From: a virus | Taxonomy: Duplodnaviria; Heunggongvirae; Uroviricota; Caudoviricetes | Direction: 5' to 3' (one strand) | DNA length: 37,985 bases | IMG/VR virus record: IMGVR_UViG_3300014614_000024 | Location: 1-37,985 of that record | Shown here: positions 2,777-31,502 of the stretch, one piece after another | How positions within the stretch are numbered: position 1 is the first letter of the stretch | How the letters are laid out: each line of letters begins with the position of its first letter | Program-made: the position numbers and the translations under genes | Notes under the pieces: model-generated | Databases searched by the model: none | Seen by the model: the letters and a program-made list of their open reading frames with translations, nothing else | Told to the model about the DNA's origin: nothing

Positions 2777-2855
2777 TTGCCTGAAATTTATGCCATTTAA
2801 AATCATGACGTTAGAAGCACTGTTTTTTAACGATGGCGACAAAATGGCGGCAGCA

Positions 2856-3074: not shown

Positions 3075-3164
3075 TTTTCGAGTTCTCCCCATTTTTGCTA
3101 AATTCACAATAATGATACCGCATTATTCCATTTTGCAAACTTAAAAGTTCTCCATTGCGAAGAA

Positions 3165-4265
3165 TCATTCCATTTCGAAATCATCAATCCTCACTTCAAG
3201 CTCCAGACTGGTCGTAAAACCGTTATCCGGGCTGACGGTATGTGTCAGAGTCGTAATGGTCCATTCCGCATCATCTATCGGCTGTTTAAAACCACTGACC
3301 TTCACAGGCATTTCCGTGTAGAGATCTGCCCGCCCTTCCGCCAGTTGTAGCGAGAATGACGCAACGCCGCGTTGCAGACGTTCCCACTGCATTTTCGCTG
3401 CCCGTTCAGCGTTGCCCCGGTTGGCATAGGTGCGATTAAGTACCAGCACGTTTTCATCCGTACCCACCAGGTAATCGCCCTGCTTCGCTTCCGGCTCTTT
3501 CTTCTGCTTCTTAGTTCTGCGCTTACGCTTCACCGTGGTGCTTTCTTTCTTCGCGGGTTCACGGGTATGCAACCAGCTGGCAATTACGCCCGTGTAGGCT
3601 CCGCGATCTGCCAGGGTAAATCGGTGACTGTCGCCGTCCTTGCGTGTGATAGTGATCACTGGCAGTGGTTTACCAGTGGCGCTTTTGCCCTGCCCCTGCC
3701 GGATGAATAACAGATTGCCATTTTTCACCGACGCGATGGCACCGTACTGTCGCGCCAGTCGCATCAGAAAACTGCCGTCACTCTCATTAGTCTGGTCTAT
3801 ATGCTCCACGGGCTTATCCGACAGCTCTTTACCCAGTGCCATCTTCAGCTTGTGCCGCGCGGCTATTTCCTTCACCACTTCCCCGATGGTGGTGTTATGC
3901 CACGATTTTTCACGGCGGGGATTCAGGGTTTCCCGAAAATCAGCACTTCGCGCCCGGATAGTCAGGCGGTCCGGTGCGCCAGTGTGTTCAATCTCGTCCA
4001 CCGTGAATGCCCCTTTCGGGAAAAGCGGCTGCCTCTTCCAGCCCAGCGCCAGCGTAATGACCGCACCACGGCGCGGCAGCACGATTTTTCCATCGGCGTC
4101 GTCCAGCTCCAGATCAAGCTGGTCCGCTTCAAATCCCCGGTTATCCGTCAGCGTCAGCCCCATCAGGCGGTTGTCCAGCACAGTGGTGATATCCCTGCCT
4201 TCAATACTGATGCTGAATGCCGGAGTTTTGTTGCCTTTGTTAAGCAGTTCAGAGCTGAAATTCAC
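3165..4265 (-). CDS. D: tail protein D (late control gene D)
   Basis: 366 aa, recognisable P2 gpD homolog; GTG start at 4265; 4-bp overlap with U. Confidence 0.9.
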   Translation of the reverse strand: MNFSSELLNKGNKTPAFSISIEGRDITTVLDNRLMGLTLTDNRGFEADQLDLELDDADGKIVLPRRGAVITLALGWKRQPLFPKGAFTVDEIEHTGAPDRLTIRARSADFRETLNPRREKSWHNTTIGEVVKEIAARHKLKMALGKELSDKPVEHIDQTNESDGSFLMRLARQYGAIASVKNGNLLFIRQGQGKSATGKPLPVITITRKDGDSHRFTLADRGAYTGVIASWLHTREPAKKESTTVKRKRRTKKQKKEPEAKQGDYLVGTDENVLVLNRTYANRGNAERAAKMQWERLQRGVASFSLQLAEGRADLYTEMPVKVSGFKQPIDDAEWTITTLTHTVSPDNGFTTSLELEVRIDDFEME

Positions 4266-4747
4266 GACAGAAGCCCTCCCACCGTTTTACTGATATCGCT
4301 TAAGGCAGATGTTGCCGTTCCCTGCAGATTATTCAGTTGCGCACTGAGATCACCGAACATATCGGACAGGGATTCATCCACCCGTTTGAGCGACAGGGTG
4401 AACTCAATCCGGCGCGGCATACCGTCGCGGAAAAACTCCGTTTTAGTCTGATTCAGTCCCTCAATCACATACATGCCGTAAATCGTGCCGCTGCCTTCAA
4501 TCAGAGGCCATGCTTTCCCCTGTTCTGCCATCTGCTCAAGTGCCAGCAACGACAGCCTGCCGCCTGTTATCTCCGGCATAAGAACACCGGAAAGCGTCAG
4601 CATGTCGTTGTCCGGTCCCAGAAACTGCGTGGACGGACGACGATTTACCCGGCTGTTAGCCGCATGTCGCCAGCTGCGTTGATACTGCAGTTCCTGATAC
4701 GGCACGGTGCGCAGCATAAACACGTACAATCCCAGCACCATCATCAT
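4262..4747 (-). CDS. U: tail protein U
   Basis: 161 aa, P2 gpU-like; sits between T and D as in P2. Confidence 0.9.
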   Translation of the reverse strand: MMMVLGLYVFMLRTVPYQELQYQRSWRHAANSRVNRRPSTQFLGPDNDMLTLSGVLMPEITGGRLSLLALEQMAEQGKAWPLIEGSGTIYGMYVIEGLNQTKTEFFRDGMPRRIEFTLSLKRVDESLSDMFGDLSAQLNNLQGTATSALSDISKTVGGLLS

Positions 4748-10108: not shown

Positions 10109-10522
10109 TTATCTGCTTGCAGGGAAAACAGGCCAAATAATATCAGGTGCGGTGCTGGTATCTGTTGCCGTCACAGCCTCGATATAATCCAGCACAACGT
10201 TAAGTCGGGTAGTTTCCTCTTGCGTCAGTTTGCGCCCGGCCTGCAGCTTTAACTGAATCACGCTGATATTAGCCATTGCTGCGTCTGTCAGCGACTGTTT
10301 TTTCTGTTCAGCGTCAGCTACCAGTTCATCATGAGAACGTTCCGGAGGGAGCGGCGCAGTAAATACCCCGTCTGAATACCCCCATCCGATTCCGGGATGC
10401 TCACTGATATCAGAAATATCAATGAGCTGCTGATTATCCGGCACTGTGAATTCAGCCTCGCCATCCCAGACAATGACATTCACAACCATCCCATTTTCAA
10501 TAACTGCATATGACGTATTCAT
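10109..10522 (-). CDS. G: tail fibre assembly chaperone
   Basis: 137 aa from the ATG at 10522, which overlaps the H stop codon (TAATG) with GAGGAG 8 nt upstream; tail-fibre-assembly-like sequence (MNTSYAVIENG...). Confidence 0.8.
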   Translation of the reverse strand: MNTSYAVIENGMVVNVIVWDGEAEFTVPDNQQLIDISDISEHPGIGWGYSDGVFTAPLPPERSHDELVADAEQKKQSLTDAAMANISVIQLKLQAGRKLTQEETTRLNVVLDYIEAVTATDTSTAPDIIWPVFPASR

Positions 10523-12273
10523 TATGCAAACTCCTCGATAATACAAATCCCTGCTGCGCCTTTCCCGCCCGTCATACTGGTTCCGCTATAACCGGCATCG
10601 TATGCACCACCGCCACCTGAACCATATGCCTTACCGTTAACGCCACCGCCTGCGCCTGCGCGTCCACCGCCACCCCAGTACGATGTTCCGCCTTCACCGC
10701 TGACGCCGATATTTCCGGACTGACCGTCGCCTCCATTTCCACCAGTGATGCGGATATCGCCAGTACTCGGCACACCTCCGTTACCGCCGTTTGTATTTGT
10801 AACTCCCACTTTCCCGCCACCTGCGCCACCAGGAGCAATTAACGATGCAAATACGCTATTCCCGCCACTGGTGCCGTTCGTCGCACTAACACCACCGGCC
10901 CCACCTGCGCCGATAGTGACAGGATAACTATCCTTCGTCAGGATCAGCGTGGTGATTACTGTCCCACCTGCCCCGCCGCCAGCACCGAAAAACGTTTCAT
11001 TATTGGATATAGCCTTGCAGCCGCCCCCTCCGCCACCGCCGCCCGTTATTGTGACCCTGATCCGTTTTGTTCCTGGCGTCGGGGTGTACGTACCTGATGA
11101 GGTGAAAACCCGGGTATTCAGCCAGCGTCCAACGTATCCACTTGCATCGCTCAGACCAAGATATTGAATAACCGCCTGTGTGCTTGCTTTATCCAGAATA
11201 TTCCGTCCAACGTTAGTCAGGGTTGTCAGGCTGGCTGTATCATTCCCCGTAAAATACGGAAGTTTGTCTGCCGCAGTGGCAAGGTCTGCCAGTGCGGTCA
11301 GTGTGGCGTCGGCAGGTTGTTTTCCATTGGCAAGGTCATATACAGCCTTCACAGCTTTTGGTGTGGCAGCCTGCGTTTCTGACGTGCTGTTAGTGGCGCT
11401 GCTGAGTTGCACGGTACCTTTTACCGTCAGTGAAGCTGCAGGCACATCCGTTATCTGGCTCCACGGGTGCGTGTGACTGACAGGTGCCTTACCTGCTGCA
11501 AGGTCATATGCCGCCTTCACTGCCTTTGGTGTGGCAGCCTGCGTTTCTGACGTGCTGTTAGTGGCGCTGCTGAGTTGCACGGTGCCTTTTACCGTCAGTG
11601 AAGCTGCAGGCACATCCGTTATCTGATTCCACGGGTGTGTGTGACTGGCGGATGCTTTACCTGCTGCAAGATCATATGCAGCCTTCACAGCCTTTGGTGT
11701 TGCGGCCAGTATTTCGGATTCACTGTTGGTCGCACTGCTTAACTGAGTAAAACCTTTTGCGGTCAGCGAGGCGTCCGGGTGACGTCGTGACTGTTCGTGC
11801 TCTGATATTTTGTCATCCACATACTTGCGAGTTGCCAGCACGACGGCAGGGTCGATTTTCAGGGTGATATTGTCCGTGCTGCTGGTAATCAGCACCATGC
11901 GCACGGTCTGGGTGCGCCCGCTGCCTTCAGCCAGTTGCGGCTTATAGCTTTCCGGGCAGTTGCCCACGGCAATCAATGCCCCGGACTCATCAAACAGGCC
12001 CACTTCACGTATCCACCAACCGCCCTCGTTTTCAGGGATCACCTGTTCGGCAATAATCTGGCTGCTGTTCTGCGGGTCGATATAGAGCATATTCAGCGCA
12101 GCCCGGCGTTTCTCATTTACTAGTGCTGTCTGCTTTGCGTCCGGCGTTGGCAATGTTCCGCCGCCATCGCCGACCGCCATATGGGTAATTTTTAAAGGCA
12201 CACCGAGCGCGGCGGCGCTGGCAAGTTTCGCCGCGCCAATATCCGTCAGCAGGGTATAAAATTTTGTGCTCAT
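10522..12273 (-). CDS. H: tail fibre protein with conserved N-terminal P2-H-like domain, internal tandem repeats and glycine-rich C-terminal tip
   Basis: 583 aa; N-terminus like P2 gpH; see repeat feature; C-terminal ~175 aa are dominated by GG/GGG runs. Confidence 0.85.
   Translation of the reverse strand: MSTKFYTLLTDIGAAKLASAAALGVPLKITHMAVGDGGGTLPTPDAKQTALVNEKRRAALNMLYIDPQNSSQIIAEQVIPENEGGWWIREVGLFDESGALIAVGNCPESYKPQLAEGSGRTQTVRMVLITSSTDNITLKIDPAVVLATRKYVDDKISEHEQSRRHPDASLTAKGFTQLSSATNSESEILAATPKAVKAAYDLAAGKASASHTHPWNQITDVPAASLTVKGTVQLSSATNSTSETQAATPKAVKAAYDLAAGKAPVSHTHPWSQITDVPAASLTVKGTVQLSSATNSTSETQAATPKAVKAVYDLANGKQPADATLTALADLATAADKLPYFTGNDTASLTTLTNVGRNILDKASTQAVIQYLGLSDASGYVGRWLNTRVFTSSGTYTPTPGTKRIRVTITGGGGGGGGCKAISNNETFFGAGGGAGGTVITTLILTKDSYPVTIGAGGAGGVSATNGTSGGNSVFASLIAPGGAGGGKVGVTNTNGGNGGVPSTGDIRITGGNGGDGQSGNIGVSGEGGTSYWGGGGRAGAGGGVNGKAYGSGGGGAYDAGYSGTSMTGGKGAAGICIIEEFA
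11331..11770 (-). repeat. in-frame tandem direct repeats, period 168 bp (56 aa), about 2.6 copies, inside gene H
   Basis: copies begin at 11331, 11499 and 11667 (caaggtcatat...gcctttggtgtggcagcctgcgtttctgacg...), nearly identical at the DNA level; the protein shows repeated HTHPW(N/S)QITDVPAASLTVKGTVQLSSATNSTSETQAATPKAVKA.YDLA.GK. Confidence 0.8.
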
Positions 12274-15212: not shown

Positions 15213-15636
15213 GTTTCACCGTCCACATTTCTTCAGGTTCATCAGGTTCCGCTATAGCTTCAACGCTCGACACACTGCCGTCAGTGCTGACCAGCACACG
15301 TTCCGTCAGTTGCAGGTTCAGGCTGATATCACAGACATCGTTGCGCAGAATATCCACCTCAAAGGTGAATAGCTTTTCCCGTAACGCCGGGTTATTGATG
15401 GCATCGGGCTGGTTATCACGCAGCCACAGCAAAACCGGGGCCATCAGCAGATTCTGGTCGCCGCTGAAATCCTCAATCACCACGTTCAGGGTGTAGCGGT
15501 ACTCCCATGACATGGAGCTGGCCCCCGTGGCAACCAGCGAACCGTTATCCACAAACAGATGCAGTTTGTCCGGGTTATTGCGGACATAAGGCACCGCTTT
15601 ATTGAGGGCGTGGCGCAGGGATTGTGGTTTGTTCAC
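15205..15636 (-). CDS. R: tail completion protein R
   Basis: P2 gpR-like; start placed at GTG 15636 (VNKPQSLR, compare P2 MLKPDSLR) with AGGAG 7 nt upstream. Confidence 0.8.
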   Translation of the reverse strand: MNKPQSLRHALNKAVPYVRNNPDKLHLFVDNGSLVATGASSMSWEYRYTLNVVIEDFSGDQNLLMAPVLLWLRDNQPDAINNPALREKLFTFEVDILRNDVCDISLNLQLTERVLVSTDGSVSSVEAIAEPDEPEEMWTVKRG

Positions 15637-15889
15637 TGTTTCGCTCCTGACACGCAATAATCATGTCCACTTTGTCTGCACAGACCGCCCAGGCGGCCTC
15701 CGTTTCATCCAGCAACGCATTCAGATCACCGTTAGTGCGCGGTGCTGCCTGCTCCAGCCGACACGGCGTCACTCGCGGACAACCACTGACGGTAAGCTGC
15801 ACCTCCGGTGAGTGCCTGACGTTCCCGCAGCCGGATAATGTCAGCAGGCAAAGGAGTATCAGCCCAGTGGCGTAAATCCTCGTTCTCAC
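15599..15889 (-). CDS. lysC: LysC-like o-spanin (Rz1-type outer-membrane lipoprotein), nested in the lysB and R region
   Basis: 96 aa with signal peptide and lipobox LTLSGC; starts inside lysB in another frame and runs past the lysB stop into the R start, as P2 lysC does. Confidence 0.75.
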   Translation of the reverse strand: MRTRIYATGLILLCLLTLSGCGNVRHSPEVQLTVSGCPRVTPCRLEQAAPRTNGDLNALLDETEAAWAVCADKVDMIIACQERNSEQTTIPAPRPQ

Positions 15890-16160
15890 GTTTCAGTTCC
15901 TCGATCCGGCGTTGTCGTTGTCTCAGCTGTGCGCTGGTCTGTTCTGCTTCGGCATAGAGCCGCGCCTGCTCCCGGTTATTGGTTTCAGTCAGAATGGACA
16001 GGCTGATAAGCTGGCTGTTGCTCTTTGCCAGTGCCTGGCTTTTGCTCTGCAGCTCGTTTGCCTGCGTGCTGATGGTCTGGCTGGCATCAGCCAGCCGCCA
16101 CGTCTGCCAGCCCAGCGCCGCTAGTAATAACACCAGCACAACCAGCAGCAACCGGTTCAT
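15732..16160 (-). CDS. lysB: LysB-like i-spanin (Rz-type)
   Basis: 142 aa with N-terminal TM anchor and coiled-coil periplasmic part; P2 LysB-like. Confidence 0.8.
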   Translation of the reverse strand: MNRLLLVVLVLLLAALGWQTWRLADASQTISTQANELQSKSQALAKSNSQLISLSILTETNNREQARLYAEAEQTSAQLRQRQRRIEELKRENEDLRHWADTPLPADIIRLRERQALTGGAAYRQWLSASDAVSAGAGSTAH

Positions 16161-16534
16161 GCTGCTACCTGTTGCGCCATCTGATTACGGGTGATCCAGA
16201 AGGCAATAACGGTCAGTAGATAAAAGACCAGGGTAATAGCCCACCCCGTCCATGCGAGACTTACAACAATCAGCAATCGCATCACCCAACTGATAAATAC
16301 GTTTTCTTTTCGGGTAATTGTCTTCAGCAAAGATGCCCTTAACTCCTGCCAGAGCGGGCCATTCTGAATTAACGCAGCCAGTGCTACCGGAATTACCGCC
16401 CATGTCAGCAAACAGGCTACCCAAACGCCGGACGCTGCCAGTACCGGAAAGATCCCCTGCGGATGCACCATTGCTGCGATTAACAGCGCCATCCATAACA
16501 TCAGAAACAGTCCGCTGATTAATTTCTTTTTCAT
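16157..16534 (-). CDS. lysA: LysA-like membrane protein (lysis timing)
   Basis: start placed at internal ATG 16534 (MKKKLISG...) with GGAG upstream, 1 nt after the K stop; about four hydrophobic segments. Confidence 0.7.
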   Translation of the reverse strand: MKKKLISGLFLMLWMALLIAAMVHPQGIFPVLAASGVWVACLLTWAVIPVALAALIQNGPLWQELRASLLKTITRKENVFISWVMRLLIVVSLAWTGWAITLVFYLLTVIAFWITRNQMAQQVAA

Positions 16535-16535
16535 T

Positions 16536-17048
16536 TCAGTTTGCTCCCTGTAAACACCAGGCCATCTCCCGCGCACGGCGGTTATCCAGCCCCTGATTAA
16601 ACACACCTTTTACATAAACCCAGCGCGGCAACTGTCGGCACGCATCCGCCCAGCGCCGCTGATTGAGCAATTTCACCAGCGTGGAGCTGCAGGCATTGCC
16701 TGTCCCCACGTTGAAGGCAAACGACACCACCGAGTCATACACCTTTTGTGGCGGCTGTTGCTTCACACATCTTTCCAGCGCCCGCTCCACACGCAGCACG
16801 TTGGAGATAAGCCCTTCTGCTGCCTGTCGTTCCGTAATGGTTTTGCCGGGAATGACGCCCGACGTATTACCAATGCCGTCAGTCCATACACCCGCGCTGC
16901 ACTGATACGGCTGCAGACGACAGCCTTCGTAATCGGCAATCAGTTTCAGTCCCTCCACGGAGGTGTGAAGCTGCTGAAAACCCGGCAGCGTGGCAGCAAT
17001 AGCCAGCACGGTCCCGACAAGGCAGCGTTTAACGATTGATGGATTCAT
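16536..17048 (-). CDS. K: endolysin (phage lysozyme family)
   Basis: 170 aa, P2 gpK-like. Confidence 0.9.
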   Translation of the reverse strand: MNPSIVKRCLVGTVLAIAATLPGFQQLHTSVEGLKLIADYEGCRLQPYQCSAGVWTDGIGNTSGVIPGKTITERQAAEGLISNVLRVERALERCVKQQPPQKVYDSVVSFAFNVGTGNACSSTLVKLLNQRRWADACRQLPRWVYVKGVFNQGLDNRRAREMAWCLQGAN

Positions 17049-17244
17049 AGTCCTCCCGCGTGATCTGCCCGTCGCGCAGAAGCTGGTAGGCTTTGTGTTT
17101 GTAGTACCAGTTGATAGCCAGCATCAGCACACCGATCATCAGGCCGCCCAGCGTTGAGGCATCCTTGATGGACAAATCGCCCAGCCAGGCCAGCACGACG
17201 GCGATGCAATACGTGATAAAGGCGCTGATTCGCTCAAGCGTCAT
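17029..17244 (-). CDS. Y: holin
   Basis: 71 aa with two hydrophobic helices and a charged C-terminus; immediately upstream of and overlapping the endolysin, in the P2 Y position. Confidence 0.65.
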   Translation of the reverse strand: MTLERISAFITYCIAVVLAWLGDLSIKDASTLGGLMIGVLMLAINWYYKHKAYQLLRDGQITREDYESINR

Positions 17245-17247
17245 AAT

Positions 17248-17451
17248 TCAGTCCCATAGCTGGACGGTCTGCACGGTGGTGGTTGTCGGAATGTCCGGCA
17301 GCTCCACCTGCAGCCCGTGAGGTAAAAAGGGGCCATATTCGGCAAGCCCCGGATTTGCCTTCAGTACCTGCTCCGTGACACCCTGCGTGCGCCCGTAATG
17401 ACGCCAGCAAAGCGCGTCCACCGTGTCATACTGATGCGCACACACTTTCAT
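17248..17451 (-). CDS. X: tail protein X
   Basis: 67 aa, P2 gpX-like. Confidence 0.85.
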   Translation of the reverse strand: MKVCAHQYDTVDALCWRHYGRTQGVTEQVLKANPGLAEYGPFLPHGLQVELPDIPTTTTVQTVQLWD

Positions 17452-17915
17452 CAGATAAGCTCCACTGTGCAGTGCGGCGCATCCTGTACCCGGCTGATGG
17501 CCCAGCGGGCGTCACGCCACAAATCACCGCTGGCTTCCGCCAGTTCCTCGCCCCGCTTCACACCAGACGCCGTGGCGTCATAGTCCTGGTAACGTTCGTT
17601 GAGCATGGCGCGTGCCCAGCAGTAAACCGCGTTGAAATAGTGCTGAATGCGCTCACTTTTGCCGTCCAGTTGTTCCGCCGGAACCTCTGCCAGCGAGGCA
17701 TATCCCAGCATCTGCTGGCGTCTGCGAAACTCATACAGTTCTGCGTTGACCTCCGAAATTGCCGACAGCGCAACCTGCTTTAAACGCGGCTGCGTCACCG
17801 TGCCGTCAGTGCGCATCACACTGCGAAACTCCGACAGGTCCACATCAGGCCAGAACGGCGTATTTCTGATGATTTCCGCCTGTTCCGGTGCCTGTTCTGG
17901 TGCAACAAACTTCAT
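17451..17915 (-). CDS. L: head completion/stabilisation protein L
   Basis: P2 gpL-like; start placed at ATG 17915 (MKFVAPEQ...) with AGGAGA upstream; an upstream GTG at 17978 is also possible. Confidence 0.8.
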   Translation of the reverse strand: MKFVAPEQAPEQAEIIRNTPFWPDVDLSEFRSVMRTDGTVTQPRLKQVALSAISEVNAELYEFRRRQQMLGYASLAEVPAEQLDGKSERIQHYFNAVYCWARAMLNERYQDYDATASGVKRGEELAEASGDLWRDARWAISRVQDAPHCTVELI

Positions 17916-20715: not shown

Positions 20716-22482
20716 ATGAACACCACACTGACACCCGCAGATCTCGATCCCCGTCGGCAGGCCATGCTGCTGTACTTTCAGGGATACCGCGTAGCCCGCA
20801 TTGCTGAAATGCTGGGCGAGAAAGTTGCAACCGTTCACAGCTGGAAAAAACGCGACAAGTGGGGTGACTATGGGCCGCTGGATCAGATGCAGCTCACCAC
20901 CGCCGCACGCTACTGCCAGCTCATTATGAAGGAGCACAAAGAAGGGAAAGATTTCAAAGAAATTGACCTGCTGGCGCGCCAGTCGGAGCGCCACGCGCGG
21001 ATCGGCAAGTTTAACAATGGCGGCAACGAAGCCGACTTAAACCCTAACGTCGCCAACCGCAACAAAGGCCCGCGCCGTCAGCCGGAAAAGAATGTTTTCA
21101 CCGATGAACAGATAGAGAAACTGGAAGAAATCTTCCATTCCTCCATGTTCAACTACCAGCGCCACTGGTGGGAAGCCGGAAAAACCAACCGCATCCGCAA
21201 CCTGCTGAAGTCACGCCAGATCGGCGCGACCTTTTACTTTGCCCGTGAAGCCCTGATTGACGCCCTGCTTACCGGACGTAACCAGATTTTCCTTTCTGCC
21301 AGTAAGGCACAGGCTCACGTCTTTAAGCAGTACATCATCGACTTCGCCAAAGAAGTCGAGGTGGAGCTGAAAGGCGATCCGATGGTGCTTCCTAACGGGG
21401 CCACGCTTTACTTCCTCGGCACCAATGCCCGCACGGCGCAGAGTTACCACGGCAACCTGTATCTGGATGAATATTTCTGGATACCGAAATTCCAGGAGTT
21501 GCGCAAAGTGGCTTCCGGTATGGCTATTCACAAGAAATGGCGACAAACCTATTTTTCCACGCCATCCAGCCTGACCCACAGTGCTTATCCGTTCTGGTCC
21601 GGTGCGCTGTTCAACCGTGGACGCAACAAAGCTGACAAGGTGGACATCGACCTGTCCCACAGCAATCTGGCCCCCGGCCTACTGTGCGCAGACGGGCAAT
21701 ACCGCCAGATAGTCACCGTGGAAGATGCGGTGCGCGGCGGCTGTAACCTGTTCGACCTCGACCAGCTGCGCATGGAGTACAGCCCGGACGAATACCAGAA
21801 CCTGCTGATGTGCGAGTTCGTGGACGATCTCGCGTCCGTGTTCCCGCTCAGCGAACTGCAGGCGTGCATGGTGGACAGCTGGGAAGTCTGGACCGACTTT
21901 CATGCACTGGCCCTGCGCCCGTTTGGCTGGCGCGAAGTGTGGATCGGTTATGACCCGGCAAAAGGTACGCAGAACGGCGACAGTGCCGGATGCGTGGTGG
22001 TGGCTCCGCCAGCCGTGCCGGGTGGTAAGTTCCGCATTCTTGAGCGTCACCAGTGGCGCGGGATGGACTTCCGCGCCCAGGCTGACGCCATCAAAAAACT
22101 GACCGAACAGTATAACGTGACCTATATCGGTATCGACTCGACCGGCGTCGGTCACGGGGTTTACGAGAACGTGAAAGCGTTTTTTCCTGCCGTCAGGGAG
22201 TTTGTCTATAACCCCAACGTTAAAAACGCCCTGGTACTCAAGGCCTACGACATTATCAGCCACCGCCGTCTGGAGTTTGACGCCGGGCACACCGACATTG
22301 CGCAGTCATTTATGGCAATCCGTCGCGCTACCACTGCCAGTGGCAACCGCCCGACCTATGAAGCCAGCCGCAGCGAAGAAGCCAGCCATGCCGATCTGGC
22401 CTGGGCAACAATGCACGCACTGTTTAACGAACCGCTGCAGGGCGAGTCCGCCAATACCAGCAATATTGTGGAGATTTTTTGA
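20716..22482 (+). CDS. P: terminase ATPase (large) subunit P
   Basis: 588 aa, P2 gpP-like; divergent from O as in P2. Confidence 0.9.
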   Translation: MNTTLTPADLDPRRQAMLLYFQGYRVARIAEMLGEKVATVHSWKKRDKWGDYGPLDQMQLTTAARYCQLIMKEHKEGKDFKEIDLLARQSERHARIGKFNNGGNEADLNPNVANRNKGPRRQPEKNVFTDEQIEKLEEIFHSSMFNYQRHWWEAGKTNRIRNLLKSRQIGATFYFAREALIDALLTGRNQIFLSASKAQAHVFKQYIIDFAKEVEVELKGDPMVLPNGATLYFLGTNARTAQSYHGNLYLDEYFWIPKFQELRKVASGMAIHKKWRQTYFSTPSSLTHSAYPFWSGALFNRGRNKADKVDIDLSHSNLAPGLLCADGQYRQIVTVEDAVRGGCNLFDLDQLRMEYSPDEYQNLLMCEFVDDLASVFPLSELQACMVDSWEVWTDFHALALRPFGWREVWIGYDPAKGTQNGDSAGCVVVAPPAVPGGKFRILERHQWRGMDFRAQADAIKKLTEQYNVTYIGIDSTGVGHGVYENVKAFFPAVREFVYNPNVKNALVLKAYDIISHRRLEFDAGHTDIAQSFMAIRRATTASGNRPTYEASRSEEASHADLAWATMHALFNEPLQGESANTSNIVEIF

Positions 22483-23519
22483 TGGGAAAGAGTAAGAAGA
22501 ACCGCGCTGCGTCGACGAAACAGATCCAGCATAAAAGCCAGACTTCAGCCGAAGCATTCAGCTTCGGTGATCCCGTTCCTGTTCTGGACCGCCGCGAACT
22601 GCTGGACTATGTGGAATGCGTACAGATGGATCGTTGGTACGAGCCGCCTGTGAGTTTCGACGGACTGGCGCGAACCTTCCGCGCCGCCGTGCATCACAGC
22701 TCACCGATTGCAGTGAAGTGCAACATTCTGACCAGCACCTACATCCCTCACCCGCTGCTCAGCCAGCAGGCTTTTTCGCGTTTTGTACAGGACTATCTGG
22801 TTTTTGGTAACGCCTACCTGGAGAAACGCACGAACCGCTTCGGTGAAGTTATCGCCCTTGAGCCTGCACTGGCAAAATACACCCGACGCGGGTTAGACCT
22901 TGATACCTACTGGTTTGTGCAATACGGCATGACTACGCAGCCGTATCAGTTCACGAAAGGCAACATTTTTCATCTGATGGAACCGGACATCAACCAGGAG
23001 ATCTACGGCCTGCCTGGTTATCTTTCTGCCATTCCGTCAGCTCTGCTCAACGAGTCCGCCACGCTGTTCCGCCGCAAGTATTACATTAACGGCAGTCATG
23101 CAGGCTTCATCATGTACATGACCGATGCAGCGCAGAACCAGGAGGATGTGAACAACCTCCGCAATGCGATGAAAAGCGCCAAAGGTCCTGGTAACTTCCG
23201 TAACCTGTTTATGTACTCGCCTAACGGTAAAAAGGACGGGCTTCAGATTATCCCGTTGTCAGAAGTGGCGGCGAAGGATGAGTTCCTGAATATCAAGAAC
23301 GTGAGCCGGGACGACATGATGGCGGCGCATCGTGTGCCGCCACAAATGATGGGGATAATGCCTAATAATGTCGGGGGGTTTGGGGATGTGGAGAAGGCCA
23401 GCCGTGTATTCGTCCGAAATGAGCTAATGCCACTACAAAAGCGATTACAGGAGATGAATGATTGGCTTGGCAAGGAGGCGATACAGTTTAATACCTACTC
23501 GCTAGATATAGTCCCATAA
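22479..23519 (+). CDS. Q: portal protein Q
   Basis: 346 aa, P2 gpQ-like; 4-bp overlap with P. Confidence 0.9.
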   Translation: MMGKSKKNRAASTKQIQHKSQTSAEAFSFGDPVPVLDRRELLDYVECVQMDRWYEPPVSFDGLARTFRAAVHHSSPIAVKCNILTSTYIPHPLLSQQAFSRFVQDYLVFGNAYLEKRTNRFGEVIALEPALAKYTRRGLDLDTYWFVQYGMTTQPYQFTKGNIFHLMEPDINQEIYGLPGYLSAIPSALLNESATLFRRKYYINGSHAGFIMYMTDAAQNQEDVNNLRNAMKSAKGPGNFRNLFMYSPNGKKDGLQIIPLSEVAAKDEFLNIKNVSRDDMMAAHRVPPQMMGIMPNNVGGFGDVEKASRVFVRNELMPLQKRLQEMNDWLGKEAIQFNTYSLDIVP

Positions 23520-23553: not shown

Positions 23554-24294
23554 TTACTCAATAGGTTCAAACTCATCCTGAGGAATCAGCGTCGATTGAC
23601 AGGCTTGGCTTAGTACTCCTGATAATTTACATAATAACCGATAGTTATGAGGAGCATCATCGCTAATCTTTTCGACCGTTAAAGTGATTGATTTTGGATC
23701 ATCCAATAACATCTTCTTGATATCATTACTTAAATACCTAGGGCAGTAACCAACGATTTCAGCTGGTTTATCTGCACGAACGACAACAGCATCCCCATCG
23801 TATTCATTTTGAAGATCCAAGCAAAGACGCAAAATTTGCCCCGGTTTCAATTCAGATACACGAGCATTAGCTAAGCTATTTAAGTAACCAAGTCCATGTA
23901 AGAAGAAAAAATGCTCAAAGTTACCATCAGAATCAACATCAATTTTTTTGAAAATCTGCAGCTGATCAGTGCTTCGTAAGCCTCCCGAGCGAGCAAGAAT
24001 ATCGATAGGATTTACCTTATCTTCTTCAAATCCAAGCCATTTAATGAAACTCGGATACTCTGGACGTCTCGGTGATAAAAGGCGATTTTTAAAAAGAGGA
24101 AACAATTCTTCCGAAACATAAGTTTCACGAACATCACTCATGCCGCTAAACTTTGTAAATTTAGTAGATTTAAGAGCACCTTTGGTATACCTGAAAACAT
24201 ACCCCGATTTGCGCTCTTGCAAGTTACCAACAACATGCCAGTCTCTGGTATCTGGTGCCTGCCATGCGACGTAAACGGAGTTTGTATTAGTCAT
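23554..24294 (-). CDS. HIRAN-domain protein (cargo; second gene of a two-gene operon)
   Basis: 246 aa; C-terminal segment LRLCLDLQNEYDGDAVVVRADKPAEIVGYCPRYLSNDIKKMLLD fits the HIRAN signature (N.yD..A..V...G.IGY.PR) as I recall it; ATG overlaps the upstream stop (ATGA); AT-rich. Confidence 0.6.
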   Translation of the reverse strand: MTNTNSVYVAWQAPDTRDWHVVGNLQERKSGYVFRYTKGALKSTKFTKFSGMSDVRETYVSEELFPLFKNRLLSPRRPEYPSFIKWLGFEEDKVNPIDILARSGGLRSTDQLQIFKKIDVDSDGNFEHFFFLHGLGYLNSLANARVSELKPGQILRLCLDLQNEYDGDAVVVRADKPAEIVGYCPRYLSNDIKKMLLDDPKSITLTVEKISDDAPHNYRLLCKLSGVLSQACQSTLIPQDEFEPIE

Positions 24295-25205
24295 TCTAGT
24301 AACCTTCTGCGATTTTCCATTACCATTAACGTTGCAAATCTACGTGCACTGTCGGATATACACGATGAAGGCACTTGGTTAAACACATCTGTAATGGAAT
24401 CTTCTGTTAAAACGCTCAACTTACCTAACCAATGGTCGCGAGCGGCAACTCTCCCTTCAACTGCATGTTGAAATGCTTCAACGGTCAGCAAGGGCTTTTT
24501 ATCAGTTTTTGCTTTGAATAGCTCAGAGCGAGCTTTTCTTACAAAACATGGGATTTGTCGATTTTTATCTTTAGTATTAAGCCGTTCGTTACGCTCATCA
24601 TCTAACATCTCCCTTCCTAAACTAGCGGCATGATCGTATGTTGGACACAAAAACTGCTCACCAGTTTCATTGTTAAGCATGATCGCCCAATTTTCATGAT
24701 GGCGATCTTGATTACTCACAAGTGCATCGAGCATCAAAAATCCACAAAATACATCTGCTGCATTTAGCCCGGTTAGATCATATACACTCGGAGGAGGCTT
24801 GATAGATTCCCTATCTAAACAACCCAATACCCTTGTGACAGTGTGTTCTCTGACCCTTACCGGCTTTTCCCCGGCTTGTAAAGGCCCTGGATAATCGAAT
24901 GTCGAACTGTGAAGCACTTCATTTCCCATTACCATCCGGAAACCAGATGGAATGATATTCTGAGTCACCACACCGAATCGACCATTGTATCGCGCCAAAT
25001 CATAGCTAGCATGTGGAATGTTAAGCAAATGACATAACTCAGCAGCACACTTTTCAGACCAATGCTCGCCAGTACCTGGCCTAGAGTACTTAAACAACTG
25101 CAAATTTACAGTGTCATCGGAGAAATAGAACCAAAACTTCTCTTTGGTTCCTAACTGTTCAAGATCGTTAGCTACGGGGCTAAGCTCTACCAATTGGTAT
25201 GGCAT
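24291..25205 (-). CDS. HipA-like Ser/Thr kinase core (short form, lacks the HipA N-terminal subdomains)
   Basis: 304 aa; motifs GTKEKF (compare HipA G.QEK), SNQDRHHENW (catalytic loop D.H..N) and LCPTYD (compare HipA LAPAYD); AGGGA upstream of the ATG at 25205. Confidence 0.65.
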   Translation of the reverse strand: MPYQLVELSPVANDLEQLGTKEKFWFYFSDDTVNLQLFKYSRPGTGEHWSEKCAAELCHLLNIPHASYDLARYNGRFGVVTQNIIPSGFRMVMGNEVLHSSTFDYPGPLQAGEKPVRVREHTVTRVLGCLDRESIKPPPSVYDLTGLNAADVFCGFLMLDALVSNQDRHHENWAIMLNNETGEQFLCPTYDHAASLGREMLDDERNERLNTKDKNRQIPCFVRKARSELFKAKTDKKPLLTVEAFQHAVEGRVAARDHWLGKLSVLTEDSITDVFNQVPSSCISDSARRFATLMVMENRRRLLE

Positions 25206-25350
25206 CTGACATCCCTGTTTAGCGGATTATGAATAAGTTAGGTTCCATTTTATCCAAACATTGTCAAATACTCTAAGATTTATTAGATGATAGAGCGATA
25301 CTGTATGCATGTCCAGCAATCAAATCAATATATAACTCTTATATGACTTA

Positions 25351-25380
25351 GCGCGCGCTCGTATCCCCGCCACGCCTGCC
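25351..25380 (-). other. putative cos site (cohesive-end region)
   Basis: minus-strand GGCGTGGCGGGGA (plus 25365-25376 ccccgccacgcc) matches the first 13 nt of the 186/P2 cohesive end as I recall it; lies in the only large non-coding gap between Q and A; flanked by repeated TCATGC motifs. Confidence 0.35.
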
Positions 25381-25867
25381 CGCTTTATGCAGTGGTTTTC
25401 ATGCACCTGCATGACATGAGTAAAAGCTCGCCAGTTCTAGCAGGTCTCTGCAAAAACGATCCTCAATCGATCATGCGATTTCATGCAGCATAGTCATGCA
25501 CAGCCAAGGGAAGCGTAAATCCGTATCTGAATGACCGCTGAAAAGCGAATCATACGGGTTTACAAAGATGAAAGTCCGCTGTGAGTGAAAAGCGGACATT
25601 AACTCCTTGCTTTTTGGCACTGAAACAGAGCGAAGCAGCATGTAAGCTGTTACGGATGCGCAGCGGTGACAACAGCAACTTCAATTAAGGAAATGCTCTT
25701 GGTTTTCGGGGAGACTTTTCGAGCGATATATGATAATGAAGACACTAAAAAACTGAACAGAAACGTCTAGCTCAATATGACTTCTGTTCAGGTATAAATG
25801 GTCTATTTATATATTCTCTCTTCAAATCCTTACTGAATACTCTCGAAGATGGCTAACGCCCCCTCTC

Positions 25868-26830
25868 TTAACCTTCATAGTTCATGCCGCCAAGATACGA
25901 AGGTATCATCATTAATGATTTAACCCTTTCTTTTTCTTTTTCGGTGAGATGACGACATGCAAATGGGTAAATATTGATCAAAAATGTCTTGAGTTCGTCA
26001 AATGCCTCATCTGAATATAGGGTCCCAGATCTTAACTCATTCATTATTGTCATGACCCATTTTATAAACACAGTTGGCATCATTACATCAGCTATATCTT
26101 CCCAGCCATCAATAAGGCCATTGTTTGTTTGTTTTCTAACATACTGCCGGAGTGCTTGGTCGCAGTTGCCTCGACACGTCCAAAAAATATGTTCATTATA
26201 CTCTGGTTCTTTTTCGTAGTCGGTGCGGATTCTTTGCCATATAGTGATAATTCCCTTGTCGTCTTGAGACAGAAGCTCTTTCTTGCAAACTTTGCATTTT
26301 AAGCTAGGTTCATCGGAAAATATTCTTGCGGGTTTGGGGTTTTCTGTTTTCCACTCAGATAACGACTTTGGGAAGTACCTTTCGGCAATTTCCAATCCTC
26401 TGGAAGAGTGTAAAAGTTCCCTCTCTATTTTCTCTTTATCGAAAACCTGAAATTCAATTCGTCCTTTCAACCCGTCAAGTATTCCAGACAGACCTGCACT
26501 AGCAAGAGTTGAATAGAACCCGATAAATCCTTGGCAGTTATTCGCTATTACTCGATCAGTAATATTTGCATCATCTCCTGGATTAACTGAATTTCCACTA
26601 TGAGCTTTATGCTTACAGCTTACCAACCAACGGATAATTGTTTCCCCGCCGACACCAGTCCTTTTTTCTTCGGCTATAATATCAACCCCACCGTCAGCCC
26701 CTCTATCTGGGTCAGATATAATTTTATATCCCAGAAAAGCTAAGAAGTCGCGAGAAAAAAGTTCAAATGTGTCTTGCAGCCCTGTTGCTTTATGAGCCTC
26801 TGGTATTTCTTTGAAGTCTAATACTGGCAT
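25868..26830 (-). CDS. Mrr-cat-like PD-(D/E)xK nuclease domain fused to a Cys-rich (CxxC...CxxxC) C-terminal domain; cargo
   Basis: 320 aa; N-terminal GADGGVDIIAEE...LVSCKHK resembles the restriction-endonuclease (Mrr catalytic) core; C-terminal CKVCKK...CRGNC; AT-rich; own divergent promoter region. Confidence 0.5.
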   Translation of the reverse strand: MPVLDFKEIPEAHKATGLQDTFELFSRDFLAFLGYKIISDPDRGADGGVDIIAEEKRTGVGGETIIRWLVSCKHKAHSGNSVNPGDDANITDRVIANNCQGFIGFYSTLASAGLSGILDGLKGRIEFQVFDKEKIERELLHSSRGLEIAERYFPKSLSEWKTENPKPARIFSDEPSLKCKVCKKELLSQDDKGIITIWQRIRTDYEKEPEYNEHIFWTCRGNCDQALRQYVRKQTNNGLIDGWEDIADVMMPTVFIKWVMTIMNELRSGTLYSDEAFDELKTFLINIYPFACRHLTEKEKERVKSLMMIPSYLGGMNYEG

Positions 26831-27112
26831 TTTTATGGGGTCCTTAAGTTGTTAATGCTTATTGGGTGGAAAGAACCGTATTTAAACACGGAGTTTCTGC
26901 CTCTGTAAATTTAATATGTAGAACACTCATCACTTTTTATAACTGACAATAGGATATTTAGACGTCTGTTTTTGGCACAAAGCAGACAAAAAACTGAAGG
27001 CCCACTGTGAACGAGAAACGGACTATGATACTAACAAGAGAGCATCACTGTTAATATTTGAACAATTAATGCTCAGCTATTTATCTATTTTTACAATTAG
27101 AAAGGACTTGTA

Positions 27113-27523
27113 ATGGTTACGGTTGATGAATTAAAGATGAAATATCCGGACGCGAATGCCTGGCAAATGGGCGACAGCCCTGAACTGGCTAACGAGCTTG
27201 CAGCGCTTATCAAAAAAGGAATTAAAACGGCCTCCTGCGGCTCTTATGCCTCTTACCAGAAGGAAGAGTTTGCCCCAAGGATTGGGAGCTATAACATCAT
27301 CCTTAACGGCCAAGATGTACCGGTATACGTGACCCGGCTGGTGTCGATGCGACTGGTGCGTTTTTGTGATGTTACTGCCGAGTTCGCTCGCAAGGAAGGT
27401 GAAGGCGATTTGAGTCTTGAATATTGGCAGAGAGAGCATCAACGATTTTTTACATGTGAAGGTTACTTTTCTGATGATATGGAGCTGATTATGGAAGAGT
27501 TTGAAGTTGTTGATGTTTTGTAA
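27113..27523 (+). CDS. ASCH (PUA-like) domain protein; cargo
   Basis: 136 aa; resembles the YqfB/ASCH family by eye (IKKGIKTAS..., ...AEFARKEGEGD...); AAAGGA 6 nt upstream of the ATG. Confidence 0.55.
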   Translation: MVTVDELKMKYPDANAWQMGDSPELANELAALIKKGIKTASCGSYASYQKEEFAPRIGSYNIILNGQDVPVYVTRLVSMRLVRFCDVTAEFARKEGEGDLSLEYWQREHQRFFTCEGYFSDDMELIMEEFEVVDVL

Positions 27524-27675
27524 TCCAACAACGTTTATGCATGTCAGATTAGAATAACTGAGTACCGTTTTATCACGTGAAATTTGTATTAATGCCCGCC
27601 TCTGGCACAAAGCGAACGAGCACTTATCAAAATGCCCACCCACCTTACGCCTCGTTTCACTCGTTGCCAAAACTA

Positions 27676-27705
27676 GCCCCCATCAGAATGAATCCTCTTG
27701 GGGGC
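27676..27705. terminator. hairpin terminator (gccccc...gggggc) between the ASCH gene and the convergent DinI-like gene
   Basis: 6-bp G/C stem with 18-nt loop; on the minus strand it is followed by tagTTTTgg, 9 nt after the DinI-like stop. Confidence 0.45.
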
Positions 27706-27713
27706 AACGTTTC

Positions 27714-27947
27714 TTAATGCAGCCAGCTGTCGTCTTCCCACACCTTCTGCATAATTTTCATCACTTGTTTTCTTTCTTCGTCCAGTTGCAATCCGGTAAG
27801 TTCCACACCGTTAGAGCTACCTTTGCGGATACGAATTACCGTTTTGGGATACAGGGGGCGCAGATTGCGGTAAAGCTCGGATTCAAGGGCGTCCAGGGTA
27901 GACTGGCTAATCTTCTGCTCTTTATCGATCATTATTTCAATGCGCAT
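27714..27947 (-). CDS. DinI-family protein
   Basis: 77 aa; MRIEIMIDK...ELYRNL...KIMQKVWEDD parallels E. coli DinI (MRIEVTIAK...ILQETWESADDW); GAGGTG 7 nt upstream. Confidence 0.7.
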   Translation of the reverse strand: MRIEIMIDKEQKISQSTLDALESELYRNLRPLYPKTVIRIRKGSSNGVELTGLQLDEERKQVMKIMQKVWEDDSWLH

Positions 27948-28299: not shown

Positions 28300-30672
28300 T
28301 TAATACAGGTTCCGCCACTTATCATCTTCCTGCAAACGCTGGTTCCGATAGAAGATACGCAGGCCTGCTCCTGACGGAATACTGCCGCCGCGAAGGAGTA
28401 AATCGACCTCTTTCTCGCTACCATCAAATCCTCTGGACTTCAGCTCATAGACGAGCTGCAGTCGCTGATGGTCTGTAATTCGCTGTTTGTAGTCTTTACG
28501 CCGTTTCGGTTTAACCAGGCGTAACCTTGCAGCCAGTTCCCGGCGCTCTTTTTTGCTCATACTGTGCAGGTAATCGTGCAACTCCTTGTCATCCATGCGG
28601 GTAATGTCCGTTCTGATGTCCCCATCAGCTGATTTATCTTTCTCCTGTTGGTTCAAATTTTCAGCAAGGGGACAGTTATTGCCACGAGTCCAAGGGGCGC
28701 AAGCGCCCTGGTCGGCTGCCGCCTCCTGAACGTCAACGGCCTTACGAACCATTTTCCACTTCACGGCATGAGTGCAGATCTTGCCCTCTGCAATAGGTGA
28801 CCAGATGCCATAAATACGAATGCCGTGATCGCCATAGGCGGTCGGCTCTTCGTTGATTTCATAAGCAGTTCTGATGAGGTGATATTTGCGGGGAACCAGT
28901 ACGCCACCCTGCTTCATGATGTAGGTGGCAAAACAACCAGCATCAGCAGCAGCCAGAATGGCATCAAGGCGCGGGTTATCCAGTACCGGCGCACCTGCTT
29001 TTTTGTCCCCCTGTTGCCTTGCCGCCTGACCAGCCAGCAATCGCAGTTCACGGTAAGCCTGACGCCCCGGAATGCCAAAGAAGCGGAATTGCTGAACACG
29101 ATGCAGAGACGCCCAGGCATTAACGTATTCAGCATTATCACGCAGGGATTTCCCCGTTTCCTTGCTGATCTCGCCAGCCAGACCACGCCCGTCAATGTTC
29201 TTACTGATGTATTTCGCGATGTAGCTTGTTGGCGTACCTTTGCGCGGGTTAATCAACTCAGACTTAAAGCGCGGCCCAGTGTTATTGCCCAGCTCCTCGC
29301 GGTCTTCACGGATGGCAAACTTACGCAGTAATGCAGTGATGGTGCGGCGGTCTTTTTTGCGCATAAAACACAACAGGTGCCAGTGAACTGTACCGTCATG
29401 ATGCGGCTCAGCCACCCGCACGCCATACCACCGCAATCCGGCTTTGTGCATCGCCTTACGAAATGCAGCAAACATGCCGACCAGATAATCACTGCTTTGT
29501 CTTACCGTCGCATTTGTCCAGGTTGGGTTGGGCCTGCCGTTATTTAGCGTGGAATGGAAACGTGACGGACAGGTGATGGTGTAGAAAACGGCGCAGTCAC
29601 CGCGCATTTCCGCGATAAGCTCCAGACCTTTAACACAGGCCATCATCTCATTGCGGCGATGCGCAGGGTTGCTGCTGCTGGCGTTTACCACATCCTCCAT
29701 GTCCAGCGTGTCGCCGTCTTCGTTCACCAGTTCATGAGAACGGAAAAACTCCAGCGACTTACGGCGCTGCTCACGTTTATGCATCACGGCTTCATAGCTG
29801 ACATAGGGAGATGCTTTTTTGCTGACCAGGCAAACAGCACGCAACTGCTCTTCCCGCCATTCGCAACGCATCTTCCATAATTTCCGGTACCACCAGTCGG
29901 CGCACAACATACGCGCCAGCGAACCCGGAATGAGTTCATAGGGCACGGGTTTACGGCGGTTTCTTTTCCGGCGGAGTTGCTCAAACGCAGGCGGTATGAC
30001 ATCCAGTCGCAGGGTTTCTGCTGCCACCTTTTCCCATGTCTTGCGGATTTCTTCTGGCTTAACGTCATCGGTGGCATACAAATCGCCACAAGCTGCATCA
30101 AGGCACATGCTCATATGCGCAGCAACAAGGGTGGACAGGCGTTTCACCTGATCCTGACTCATTTCAGGCAGAATCAGCAGGCCGTCCAGCCCTTCATGGC
30201 TTGCCATAAAGCGAAAAGAAGTGGATAGCTGACTGTCGCGCACATGCTCCAGCCGTTCCAGACATGGCTTAATCGTCTCACGCAAATAGCGGGAATAAGC
30301 CTTTGGCCTGCCAAGGCTGCTGAAGTATTCAATACGTTGCATCAGCGGCTTGCTGATATGGGAAGGCTGGGCATTGACGTCCGCCAGAATGACCATATCT
30401 GGATTAAAACGCTGCTGCTCATGCGCCAGCTTTGCCCGACTAATGAGCTTATCCTGCTCCATTTCGCGCTGTACAGGATCACGGGATTCATTAAAGAAAT
30501 AACGCTCCCAGACCTGATCACTCAGTACCTCGCGGCGCAGGTGTTCCTGCTCGTTATCGGCAGCGTACAGAGCGATCAGGTTTGAAAGCGCAGAAACTGA
30601 AGATTGCTCTTCTGTCTCTACGTAAGGATTGATTGCTTTTTTCTCAGCATTCCAGGAATAGCTGTAGTTCAT
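28300..30672 (-). CDS. A: replication initiation endonuclease A (rolling-circle HUH Rep)
   Basis: 790 aa; HUH motif HWHLL and two-tyrosine motif YIAKYISK; same position as P2/186 gene A. Confidence 0.85.
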
Positions 30673-31502
30673 TACGCAATCTCCAGTTCGAGCTGTGAAG
30701 GCTGCAAACCATTCGACAGCCAGTCAGAAACTGAAGGTGGGCGAACAGCTTCAATTGCACCTTTTAAAATTGCGCAACGGTTTTTCAGAATGACAGCTTT
30801 CAGCTCCTTTTCCGTCAGATTGCGCGAATACTCAGCCTCCTGAATAGCCCGCGTAAGCTCAGGATATTTGCTATTAAATTTGGGGACATTGCAGGCAAGA
30901 TTTGTACTGTCGGCAGTCGCCAGTGGGTAATTTCCCAACACACGACCGTCAAGCATGCGCAAACCATGAACAGCTGTTTTGAAATTGTGTCGGCAATAAA
31001 TTGCTTCAAAAGCGTCCTGCATACGACGATGCCAGTGCGCAGTTCTAATAGCCGCATATTCACCAGACGATCCAAAGCAGACACGAGGCCATTCACGACA
31101 TAGCTCGATAAGCCGATCGATTGACTCGTGCAGATGCCAGACGGGAGTTGCCTTCCCGTAGAACATTTTCGGAACTTCGTTTATCAGGGCATCATTGTCA
31201 CGTTCACCTCCGTCCACAACATCAGGAATGACAAAAAAAGCGACCTTAGGATGGTGGTAATAGTTCAGGAGCCATTTATAAAAATCATTCCAGTTAATTT
31301 TTAGCCCACGCACCCATGCAGAAAATGCGCCGTTATCAATGCCAACGACCTGGGCGTGCTGAATGGACGCCGCAATCTGATCTGGTCGTACATAGGAGAC
31401 GAAAGCACCAGCTCCGCTCACCGCAATACGATGAACGTCGCCAGCACTTCCCCAGACAGGCGTCCCATGGAAATGATGAATTCCGTGGTGCATTTCTTTC
31501 AC
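30672..31502 (-). CDS. hypothetical protein translationally coupled to dam
   Basis: 276 aa; GTG start overlaps the dam stop (GTGA); His-rich N-terminus; no family recognised. Confidence 0.5.

Follow-up and report, generated by a model that had tools for sequence, protein, structure and literature searches.

Among the systems described so far, the closest to the locus treated here is the fun(Z) gene of phage P2, for which Nilsson et al. (2004, Mol Biol Evol), as reported in a 2022 review (PMC8987985), described inverted repeats flanking the gene in P2 and in bacterial genomes and inferred site-specific recombination. P2-like phages are also known for a defence hotspot in the segment between the replication genes and cos/portal, according to two further papers (PMC9122126; PMC13586616). 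How its cargo is exchanged is treated there with caution: Rousset et al. (2022; PMC9122126) speculate on cos ends plus homologous recombination, while Moura de Sousa et al. (2026; PMC13586616) list possible routes and regard the recombination processes as still to be elucidated, and term searches of both papers turned up no mention of a repeat, palindrome or hairpin bordering the cargo. The DNA analysed here, called the window throughout, is the whole 37,985-nucleotide viral record IMGVR_UViG_3300014614_000024, a P2-like (Peduoviridae) prophage in reverse orientation. Its hotspot from cos to a DinI-like gene reads, from left to right, hp2, a cassette with an Mrr-like nuclease gene, hp1-hp2, a cassette with an ASCH-domain gene, and hp1, where hp1 and hp2 are the two hairpins of an element of about 78 nt. 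Since the hairpins at P2 fun(Z), checked in the P2 genome, belong to the same family, the kind is already known through the work that the review describes, and the window adds a new instance, with two cassettes and located at the other hotspot, to a type of boundary element that is known but little used. We consider it likely that this element forms the ends of single-gene cassettes and the joints at which such cassettes are gained, lost and swapped.

The likeness to P2 fun(Z) extends to several features, namely cargo at a variable locus of a P2-like genome, flanked by a mutually inverted repeat pair of the same polarity, the presence of the same repeats around a homologous gene in chromosomes (here the ASCH gene, at 29 of 51 loci), and recombination at the repeats as the suggested process in both cases. 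The window differs in that its instance occupies the other hotspot (cos to DinI, on the TO side) and comprises two cassettes with a full element between them.

The consensus of hp1 is AA(C/T)-GTCCGCT-yyTGGCACAnA-GCGGAC and that of hp2 is GTCyGCT-rTGAGCGArr-AGCGGAC, the two being separated by a variable spacer of 10-18 nt. The second hairpin resembles an inverted first one, its loop matching the reverse complement of the hp1 loop at 6/10 positions and the hp1 loop itself at 2/10 (compared by eye on the consensus sequences). A sequence-only reading of the window had drawn attention to a 15-base direct repeat, and its two copies, TGGCACAAAGCAGAC (26973-26987) and TGGCACAAAGCGAAC (27603-27617), are indeed identical at 13/15 positions, share an 11-nt exact core and bracket the ASCH open reading frame (ORF) at 27113-27523; they are the sole matches to TGGCACAAAGCRRAC with up to two mismatches in the 37,985 bases. 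The 15-mer corresponds to the loop TGGCACA plus the 3' stem of hp1, the hairpin that forms one half of the element.

Sites in the window were located with an independent profile hidden Markov model of 54 full copies, none of which came from the window, from its near-identical relative in E. coli 2547 or from next to an ASCH gene. Exactly three significant sites are found, all on the plus strand and in the order hp2, full element, hp1, and the 15-mers gain their significance from this profile because it places both of them inside element sites. The left site (25549-25609, E 5.8e-9) is a half-element of spacer and hp2, in which the stem GTCCGCT (25574-25580), the loop GTGAGTGAAA (25581-25590) and the stem AGCGGAC (25591-25597) fold as a 7-bp hairpin (z -2.9); a loop-deleted, hp1-like remnant, recognised by eye, may precede it at 25530-25553. 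The central site is a full two-hairpin element between the cassettes (26957-27033; profile match 26957-27028, E 7.4e-12, and E 2e-10 with the first profile). Its hp1 contains the left 15-mer and consists of the stem GTCTGTT (26964-26970), the loop TTTGGCACAA (26971-26980) and the stem AGCAGAC (26981-26987), with a stem variant, GTCTG/CAGAC, that is compensatory relative to the consensus GTCCG/CGGAC; the spacer (26988-26999) leads to a degenerate hp2 of GCCCACT (27000-27006), loop GTGAACGAGA (27007-27016) and AACGGAC (27017-27023). The right site (27585-27632, E 3.4e-6) is a half-element of hp1 only, at the inner edge of the DinI-side backbone, and contains the right 15-mer within the stem GCCCGCC (27594-27600), the loop TCTGGCACAA (27601-27610) and the stem AGCGAAC (27611-27617). 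Canonical copies of the element fold into two stable hairpins (z -2.7), and T.G at one hp2 position in a third of the copies hints that the plus strand is the folding strand.

Other details of the sequence-only reading have to be revised. Its third partial copy, tttttggcac (25611-25620, plus strand, inside the nuclease module), is present and may be part of a degenerate hp1, but it has no significant profile match, and the real third piece is the hp2 directly upstream. What had been taken there for cos hairpins is this same hp2, the cos-like sequence lying at about 25358-25376. The motif GAACGAG, said to follow each copy, does not stand at equivalent positions: the left occurrence (27009-27015) is the loop of the degenerate hp2, whose consensus is GAGCGAG, and the right one (27613-27619) partly coincides with the 3' stem of hp1, a place at which GCGGACGAT stands in four relatives whose cargo is different. 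Scoring a repeat at each cargo junction by the 11-mer alone was likewise abandoned, as in 80 P2-like loci with an identical DinI gene it recovers the frame copy only, and the profile is required.

The same reading had proposed that the repeats could be boundaries of a small gene cassette, which comparisons with E. coli genomes bear out on both sides. Compared by megablast with 5,426 complete E. coli genomes, the segment 26840-27720 has a partial match in 263 of them and a match over most of its length in four only; in most sampled partial matches homology starts at 27590-27606, that is at the right copy. Prophages carrying a SIR2 gene with an ATPase gene, a 336-bp ORF (BL21) or a P-loop NTPase gene have the common edge CGCTTCTGGCACAAAGCGGACGATCAC with unrelated DNA to its left, and the right copy is thus the inner edge of a backbone common to P2-like prophages with other cargo. 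The left copy is the point where homology of the nuclease module ends: about 18 E. coli genomes contain the module (25566/9-26979) with about 99% identity, and comparison with the one examined, where it lies in a non-P2 island, shows homology stopping directly after TTTTTGGCACA, inside the left copy. On the cos side, the relatives that share the same backbone and hold other cargo in the cos-to-DinI segment begin their cargo-specific sequence about 7 nt past the left hp2. Unrelated DNA is thus joined at the hairpins with polarity and orientation fixed, and a given cargo retains its hairpins in surroundings that are otherwise unrelated. The non-P2 island of E. coli S19-141 (NZ_CP075640.1, locus 2700-7130), situated beside a GTPase-family gene, contains a run of elements at locus positions 2707-2772, 5841-5921 and 7090-7122, and a frameshifted small tyrosine recombinase gene (locus 4167-4635, minus strand) in it abuts an hp1 that ends right after TGGCACA.

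The cargo of the first cassette is a 320-amino-acid protein (25868-26830, minus strand) with an N-terminal restriction-endonuclease domain, Mrr_cat (Pfam PF04471, E 4.7e-6), for which PADLOC returned only faint matches to PDC-S02 (E 0.004-0.009) and no known defence system. Just downstream of the gene, at 25740-25804, an inverted repeat CTGAACAGAA / TTCTGTTCAG followed by a T run on the minus strand looks like the gene's own terminator, travelling with the cassette; AAAAAACTGAA from this repeat recurs at 26988-26998, directly after the left 15-mer. The second cassette carries a 136-amino-acid ASCH-domain protein (27113-27523, plus strand; Pfam PF04266, E 2e-21, 77 bits against a cut-off of 21.2), labelled 'uncharacterized protein YhfF' in some sources. 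It has no PADLOC or NCBIfam match, and the only solved relatives, PDB 1T62 and 3S9X, are both without a functional name; a role in defence is possible given its location. The suggestion of the sequence-only reading that it would be a reader of modified nucleic acids and thereby an accessory factor is conjectural, and the gene travels alone. The nuclease occurs without the ASCH gene in the about 18 E. coli genomes mentioned, and because each of the two genes is found without the other they are separately acquired, independent cassettes and not a two-gene system.

Homologues of the ASCH protein provide a second view of the same boundaries. At E <= 1e-20 there are 598 of them; chromosomal members of the family are common in Enterobacter, Klebsiella and Rahnella, and homologues with 53-94% amino acid identity were found in 44 species loci across Enterobacterales. 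DNA homology of the ASCH region to Rahnella and Erwinia chromosomes spans about 26961-27617, from element to element. Absence of the repeat from relatives with the same gene would have spoken against a boundary; in fact 29 of 51 ASCH-homologue loci have the element at the equivalent junction on one side or on both, with fixed spacing, including those of Rahnella, Erwinia, Klebsiella, Yersinia and others. It is on the strand of the ASCH gene in 28 of these 29, and all seven relatives with at least 84% amino acid identity carry it. A P2-like prophage of E. fergusonii holds the ASCH cassette (90% amino acid identity) alone at Z/fun, with a profile-supported hp1 downstream and a degenerate hp2, seen by eye, upstream. 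The Rahnella ASCH gene lies within a run of about 6 kb of co-oriented elements that separate small accessory genes of either direction, among them genes for GNAT acetyltransferases, a CdiI-type immunity protein and a NACHT protein. The E. fergusonii prophage also has cyclase-like and PycTM genes, a Pycsar-like pair, between tail genes S and V (locus 15489-17391), an insertion site that would correspond to the orf30 variable site of P2.

The same architecture extends well beyond the ASCH gene. A scan of viral contigs with the hp1 consensus gave 120 loci, of which 90 have at least two elements, co-oriented in 83. With 1 and 2 for the half-elements and F for the full one, read in the orientation of the element, 55 loci have the order 21, 13 have 2F1 and a single one has 12; dereplicated by cargo, this amounts to 38 clusters with hp2 left and hp1 right against 6 with the reverse, and a further 62 cargo clusters are of the types 2/F, F/F and F/1. 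Altogether 114 distinct types of inter-element segment were seen, and the cargo domains sampled include TIR, RES/HEPN, RelA_SpoT, trypsin-like, DUF4209 and HAD. Of the 120 loci, 42 carry markers of sheath or fibre without those of Q, gpA or DinI, a combination that suggests Z/fun, the other classical variable site of P2. Phage P2 itself has hp2 (17424-17459) and hp1 (15333-15364) on the two sides of fun(Z). When 256 loci were compared all against all, 9.4% of 10,186 homology endpoints fell in elements, which make up 0.78% of the DNA, an enrichment of about 12-fold. The endpoints cluster at the edges of hp1 and hp2 and not in the spacer, so that the unit of exchange looks like hp2-cargo-hp1 with the spacer as junction. 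At sites of the Z/fun type a second palindrome overlaps the terminal hp1, TGGCACAGAG ... CTCTGTGCCA with arms separated by TGTCAGATTAGGCTTTA or AACCACGCCAGATCTA; it is seen in phage P2 (15300-15370), in the E. fergusonii prophage (locus 10476-10540) and in many surveyed viral loci, and at Z/fun sites it may be the phage-side partner of the joint. A related string, catgtcagattagaataactgag, lies inside the ASCH cassette at 27540-27562.

Two inverted palindromic modules with a short variable spacer are also the shape of REP dimers and REPINs (for REP dimers, PMC3733652), and the element shares with the REP/BIME/REPIN group that its paired units are of about 25 nt and intergenic. It could accordingly be imagined as a mobile or selfish doublet that lands in intergenic DNA by itself, in which case the cassettes would not be units; it is scattered over Pantoea megaplasmids, where each listed record has 1-8 places, and occurs in 210 plasmid records of Klebsiella, which agrees with this, as do the 20-kb loci of Rahnella, where elements are mostly clustered in the variable stretch and one locus has two half-elements outside it. 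The polarity just described argues otherwise, since the outer ends in phages are half-elements, strictly hp2 on the left and hp1 on the right (38 against 6 clusters), and insertion of a whole doublet would not give such a pattern. Identical cargo, moreover, retains the same half-elements in unrelated contexts. The element is also rare in E. coli, with a match in 334 of the 5,426 genomes and a median of one place each, and where REPs and their kin would be expected in high copy throughout core intergenic regions it is of low copy and tied to accessory-gene boundaries and phage hotspots, with half-units of fixed polarity at insertion ends. By the tag definitions of PMC3733652, a 2013 survey of tagged REPs, the element lacks a GTAG tag, and any CGTC that it contains is base-paired in the stem; the passages found in that survey show no such enterobacterial family. 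The CGTC-tagged REPs described there, mostly from alphaproteobacteria and with unpaired tags, were considered and do not match the hp1/hp2 element. An independently mobile doublet is, on these grounds, unlikely.

The repeats might instead act in gene expression, as a shared operator or as terminator or insulator hairpins that shield the backbone from transcription of the cargo. The loops TGGCAC and TGAGCGA are conserved across genera, as for recognition by a protein, the canonical copies form two stable hairpins, and the ASCH and DinI-like genes converge on the right hp1, all of which would suit such a function. The central full element, however, stands between divergent genes, where a terminator would be useful to neither; none of three terminator-like sites found by a scan lies inside an element, no T run follows the hairpins in the sequence, and the hp1 copies of the window no longer fold. 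Nor did Rfam give a family match, on the window hotspot or on four array loci. The orientation of the element stays constant although cargo genes point either way, and recombination breakpoints concentrate in the elements, which together with the position between divergent genes tells against the shared regulator-binding site that the sequence-only reading had offered as its second option. A function in expression thus appears very unlikely as an explanation of the repeats. A sigma-54 promoter, suggested by TGGCAC, was dropped because TGGCAC-N5-GGAC/GAAC misfits the -24/-12 spacing of the sigma-54 consensus, the -12 element being absent at the required distance, as read from the letters.

Recombination at joints thus remains the preferred explanation, and it must be set against a number of points that weigh on the other side. 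The bare 15-mer is close to chance, at least two matches to its motif arising in 8 of 100 shuffles, and the surrounding 3.4 kb contain six exact 11-nt direct repeats, as would be expected if two unrelated 15-mers merely shared 11 bases. The central full element folds no better than shuffles (z about 0), and the right hp1 is decayed, has no hp1 fold and does no better than shuffles either. Across copies the stems are near-invariant and local pairing is indistinguishable from nested pairing, and because of this invariance the covariation support for the hairpins is weak. The element was not detected in 22 of the 51 ASCH loci, neither a recurrent gene nor a recombinase was found near the ASCH arrays, and the element has no linked recombinase. 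Seeding with the hp1 consensus biases the viral sample to hp1-bearing loci, and Blast endpoints at hairpin edges are expected wherever a conserved module parts unrelated DNA and place the breakpoints in or near the hairpins, not to the nucleotide. Finally, the frame DNA outside the hairpins (25502-25604 and 27622-27713) occurs only in P2-like prophages that also have the hairpins, and its parts at 25502-25548 and 27633-27713 are absent from 'empty' P2-like genomes such as vB_EcoM-813R9, in which cos is connected to DinI by about 80 unrelated bases, so that the hairpin joints do not account for the first entry into the phage; the frame may be the remains of an older insertion. An alignment of filled against empty sites at Z/fun, using the window's own empty site, failed as the flanks are too diverged.

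As for chance, it is contradicted by the E-values of the independent profile (7e-12 and 3e-6), by the coincidence of both copies with independently defined module boundaries and by the same architecture in P2 and the surveyed viral contigs; the profile, the junctions of the ASCH loci and the polarity of the cargo clusters have already refuted it, and its probability is negligible.

If the hairpins are joints for the gain, loss and swapping of cassettes by recombination, the ASCH cassette would have been captured from an enterobacterial chromosome and placed beside a nuclease cassette already in the frame. Each 15-mer would then be the 3' end of a cassette, the left one that of the nuclease cassette and the right one, fused to the phage frame, that of the ASCH cassette. 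The two hp1 copies of the window are decayed and are for this reason probably relics of past events, not active sites. Our belief is split about evenly between two routes. The first would be a dedicated recombinase that recognises the hairpins, which is favoured by the conservation of the loops across genera, by the polarity, by the half-sites at phage boundaries and by several junctions whose breakpoint falls at TGGCAC(A) or beside it. The second would be short-homology or hairpin-provoked recombination, in which the modules of 25-30 bp serve as portable homology; it is favoured by the lack of a linked recombinase and by the fact that a frame with hp2 and hp1 allows an array cassette to be swapped by two crossovers.

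Several traits recall integron cassettes and their attC sites, in particular single-gene, often promoterless-sized units, imperfect inverted-repeat boundaries in one orientation, unrelated cargo in arrays that includes acetyltransferases and immunity-type genes, and a boundary element that is split where a cassette adjoins a non-element site. The attC sites conserve mainly structure, whereas the internal sequence of hp1/hp2 is conserved across genera. The hp1/hp2 element moreover splits centrally, with hp2 on one side and hp1 on the other, and not at the far end of the site, and unlike integron cassettes the element-bounded cargo genes point either way. Core sites of attC (R''/R') read RYYYAAC ... 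GTTRRRY at the site ends; in hp1, GTCCGC is mostly preceded by AAC or AAT on the 5' side, and some copies end in GCGGAC-GTT while many do not. No IntI integrase, attI or Pc was seen, and no integrase was found between Q and gpA or recurrently near the ASCH arrays. It is conceivable, though we consider it doubtful, that the hp2...hp1 pair marks out a cassette system of the integron type that has no linked integrase, in which a putative enzyme, encoded by host or phage, cuts at or next to TGGCAC(A). Such an enzyme would carry cassettes of one gene between chromosomal arrays of enterobacteria, islands of the CP4 type and the two P2-like hotspots. Small cargo with short sites or subterminal hairpins, and with the enzymes encoded elsewhere, is also characteristic of the pdif (XerC/D) modules of Acinetobacter plasmids and of elements of the IS200/IS605 type. 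The cassettes are like these in being small cargo modules bounded by short sites or hairpins; a dif-like XerC/XerD half-site or a linked Y1/HUH transposase was not identified by reading the sequence alone.

The genes around the two cassettes confirm the layout. Terminase P (20716-22482) and portal Q (22479-23519) are followed by genes for a HIRAN protein (23554-24294, minus strand, E 3e-93) and a HipA-like kinase (24291-25205, minus strand, E 1e-121), both matched to PADLOC PDC-M03, and this pair, a candidate system, is a second cargo in the slot between portal Q and cos (23554-25205). No hairpin element was found at the edges of this slot, which in the near-identical prophage of E. coli 2547 is occupied by the retron Ec67 reverse transcriptase. 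The probable cos core ctcgtatccccgccacgcc (25358-25376) divides hotspot A on the Q side from hotspot B on the DinI side. The string, which presumably resembles the cos of phage 186, is also present in Escherichia phage vB_EcoM-813R9, and conservation of the block around it (about 25340-25604) extends to more than 1,000 E. coli genomes. The cos of P2 itself, GGCGAGGCGGGGAAAGCAC with up to three mismatches, has no match in the window, the cos-like string being a different one. To the right, the DinI-like gene (27714-27947, minus strand; Pfam PF06183, E 6.6e-23) is the backbone anchor of the hotspot, and downstream of it a GC-rich hairpin, GCCCCC...GGGGGC (27676-27706, minus strand), is conserved in the prophage alignment; it likely terminates the early operon and belongs to the conserved frame. 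A small ORF separates the DinI-like gene from the replication protein gpA (28300-30672, minus strand; Phage_GPA, E 1e-127), and the ORF just upstream of gpA (30672-31502, minus strand) has the position of an annotated DNA adenine methylase in five relatives, typical of the backbone and outside the present finding. The gene order Q, PDC-M03 pair, cos, nuclease, ASCH, DinI-like, gpA is the TO-side hotspot layout of a P2-like genome. As in the P2-like defence hotspots (PMC9122126 and PMC13586616), the locus is the same and variable cargo is swapped rapidly; cargo of the hotspot type is represented here by TIR, RES and RelA_SpoT-type genes and by PDC-M03 in the neighbouring slot.

Taken together, the repeat in the window is most likely the scar of how the nuclease and ASCH cassettes arrived. 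The window instance is ordinary in itself, and its value lies in pointing to a testable handle on cargo swapping in P2-like phages: a short, conserved and oriented signature that recurs in three settings, at the cargo edges of both P2 hotspots, in an E. coli island and in the chromosomal arrays of several other genera. With this signature it becomes possible to annotate the ends of cassettes at single-nucleotide precision and to mine for unknown cargo through its flanks instead of by homology, and the mechanism of swapping becomes open to direct testing. The integron-like reading, if true, would show in concrete terms how phage-borne defence genes are swapped so rapidly, a process that Moura de Sousa et al. 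(PMC13586616) call unexplained.

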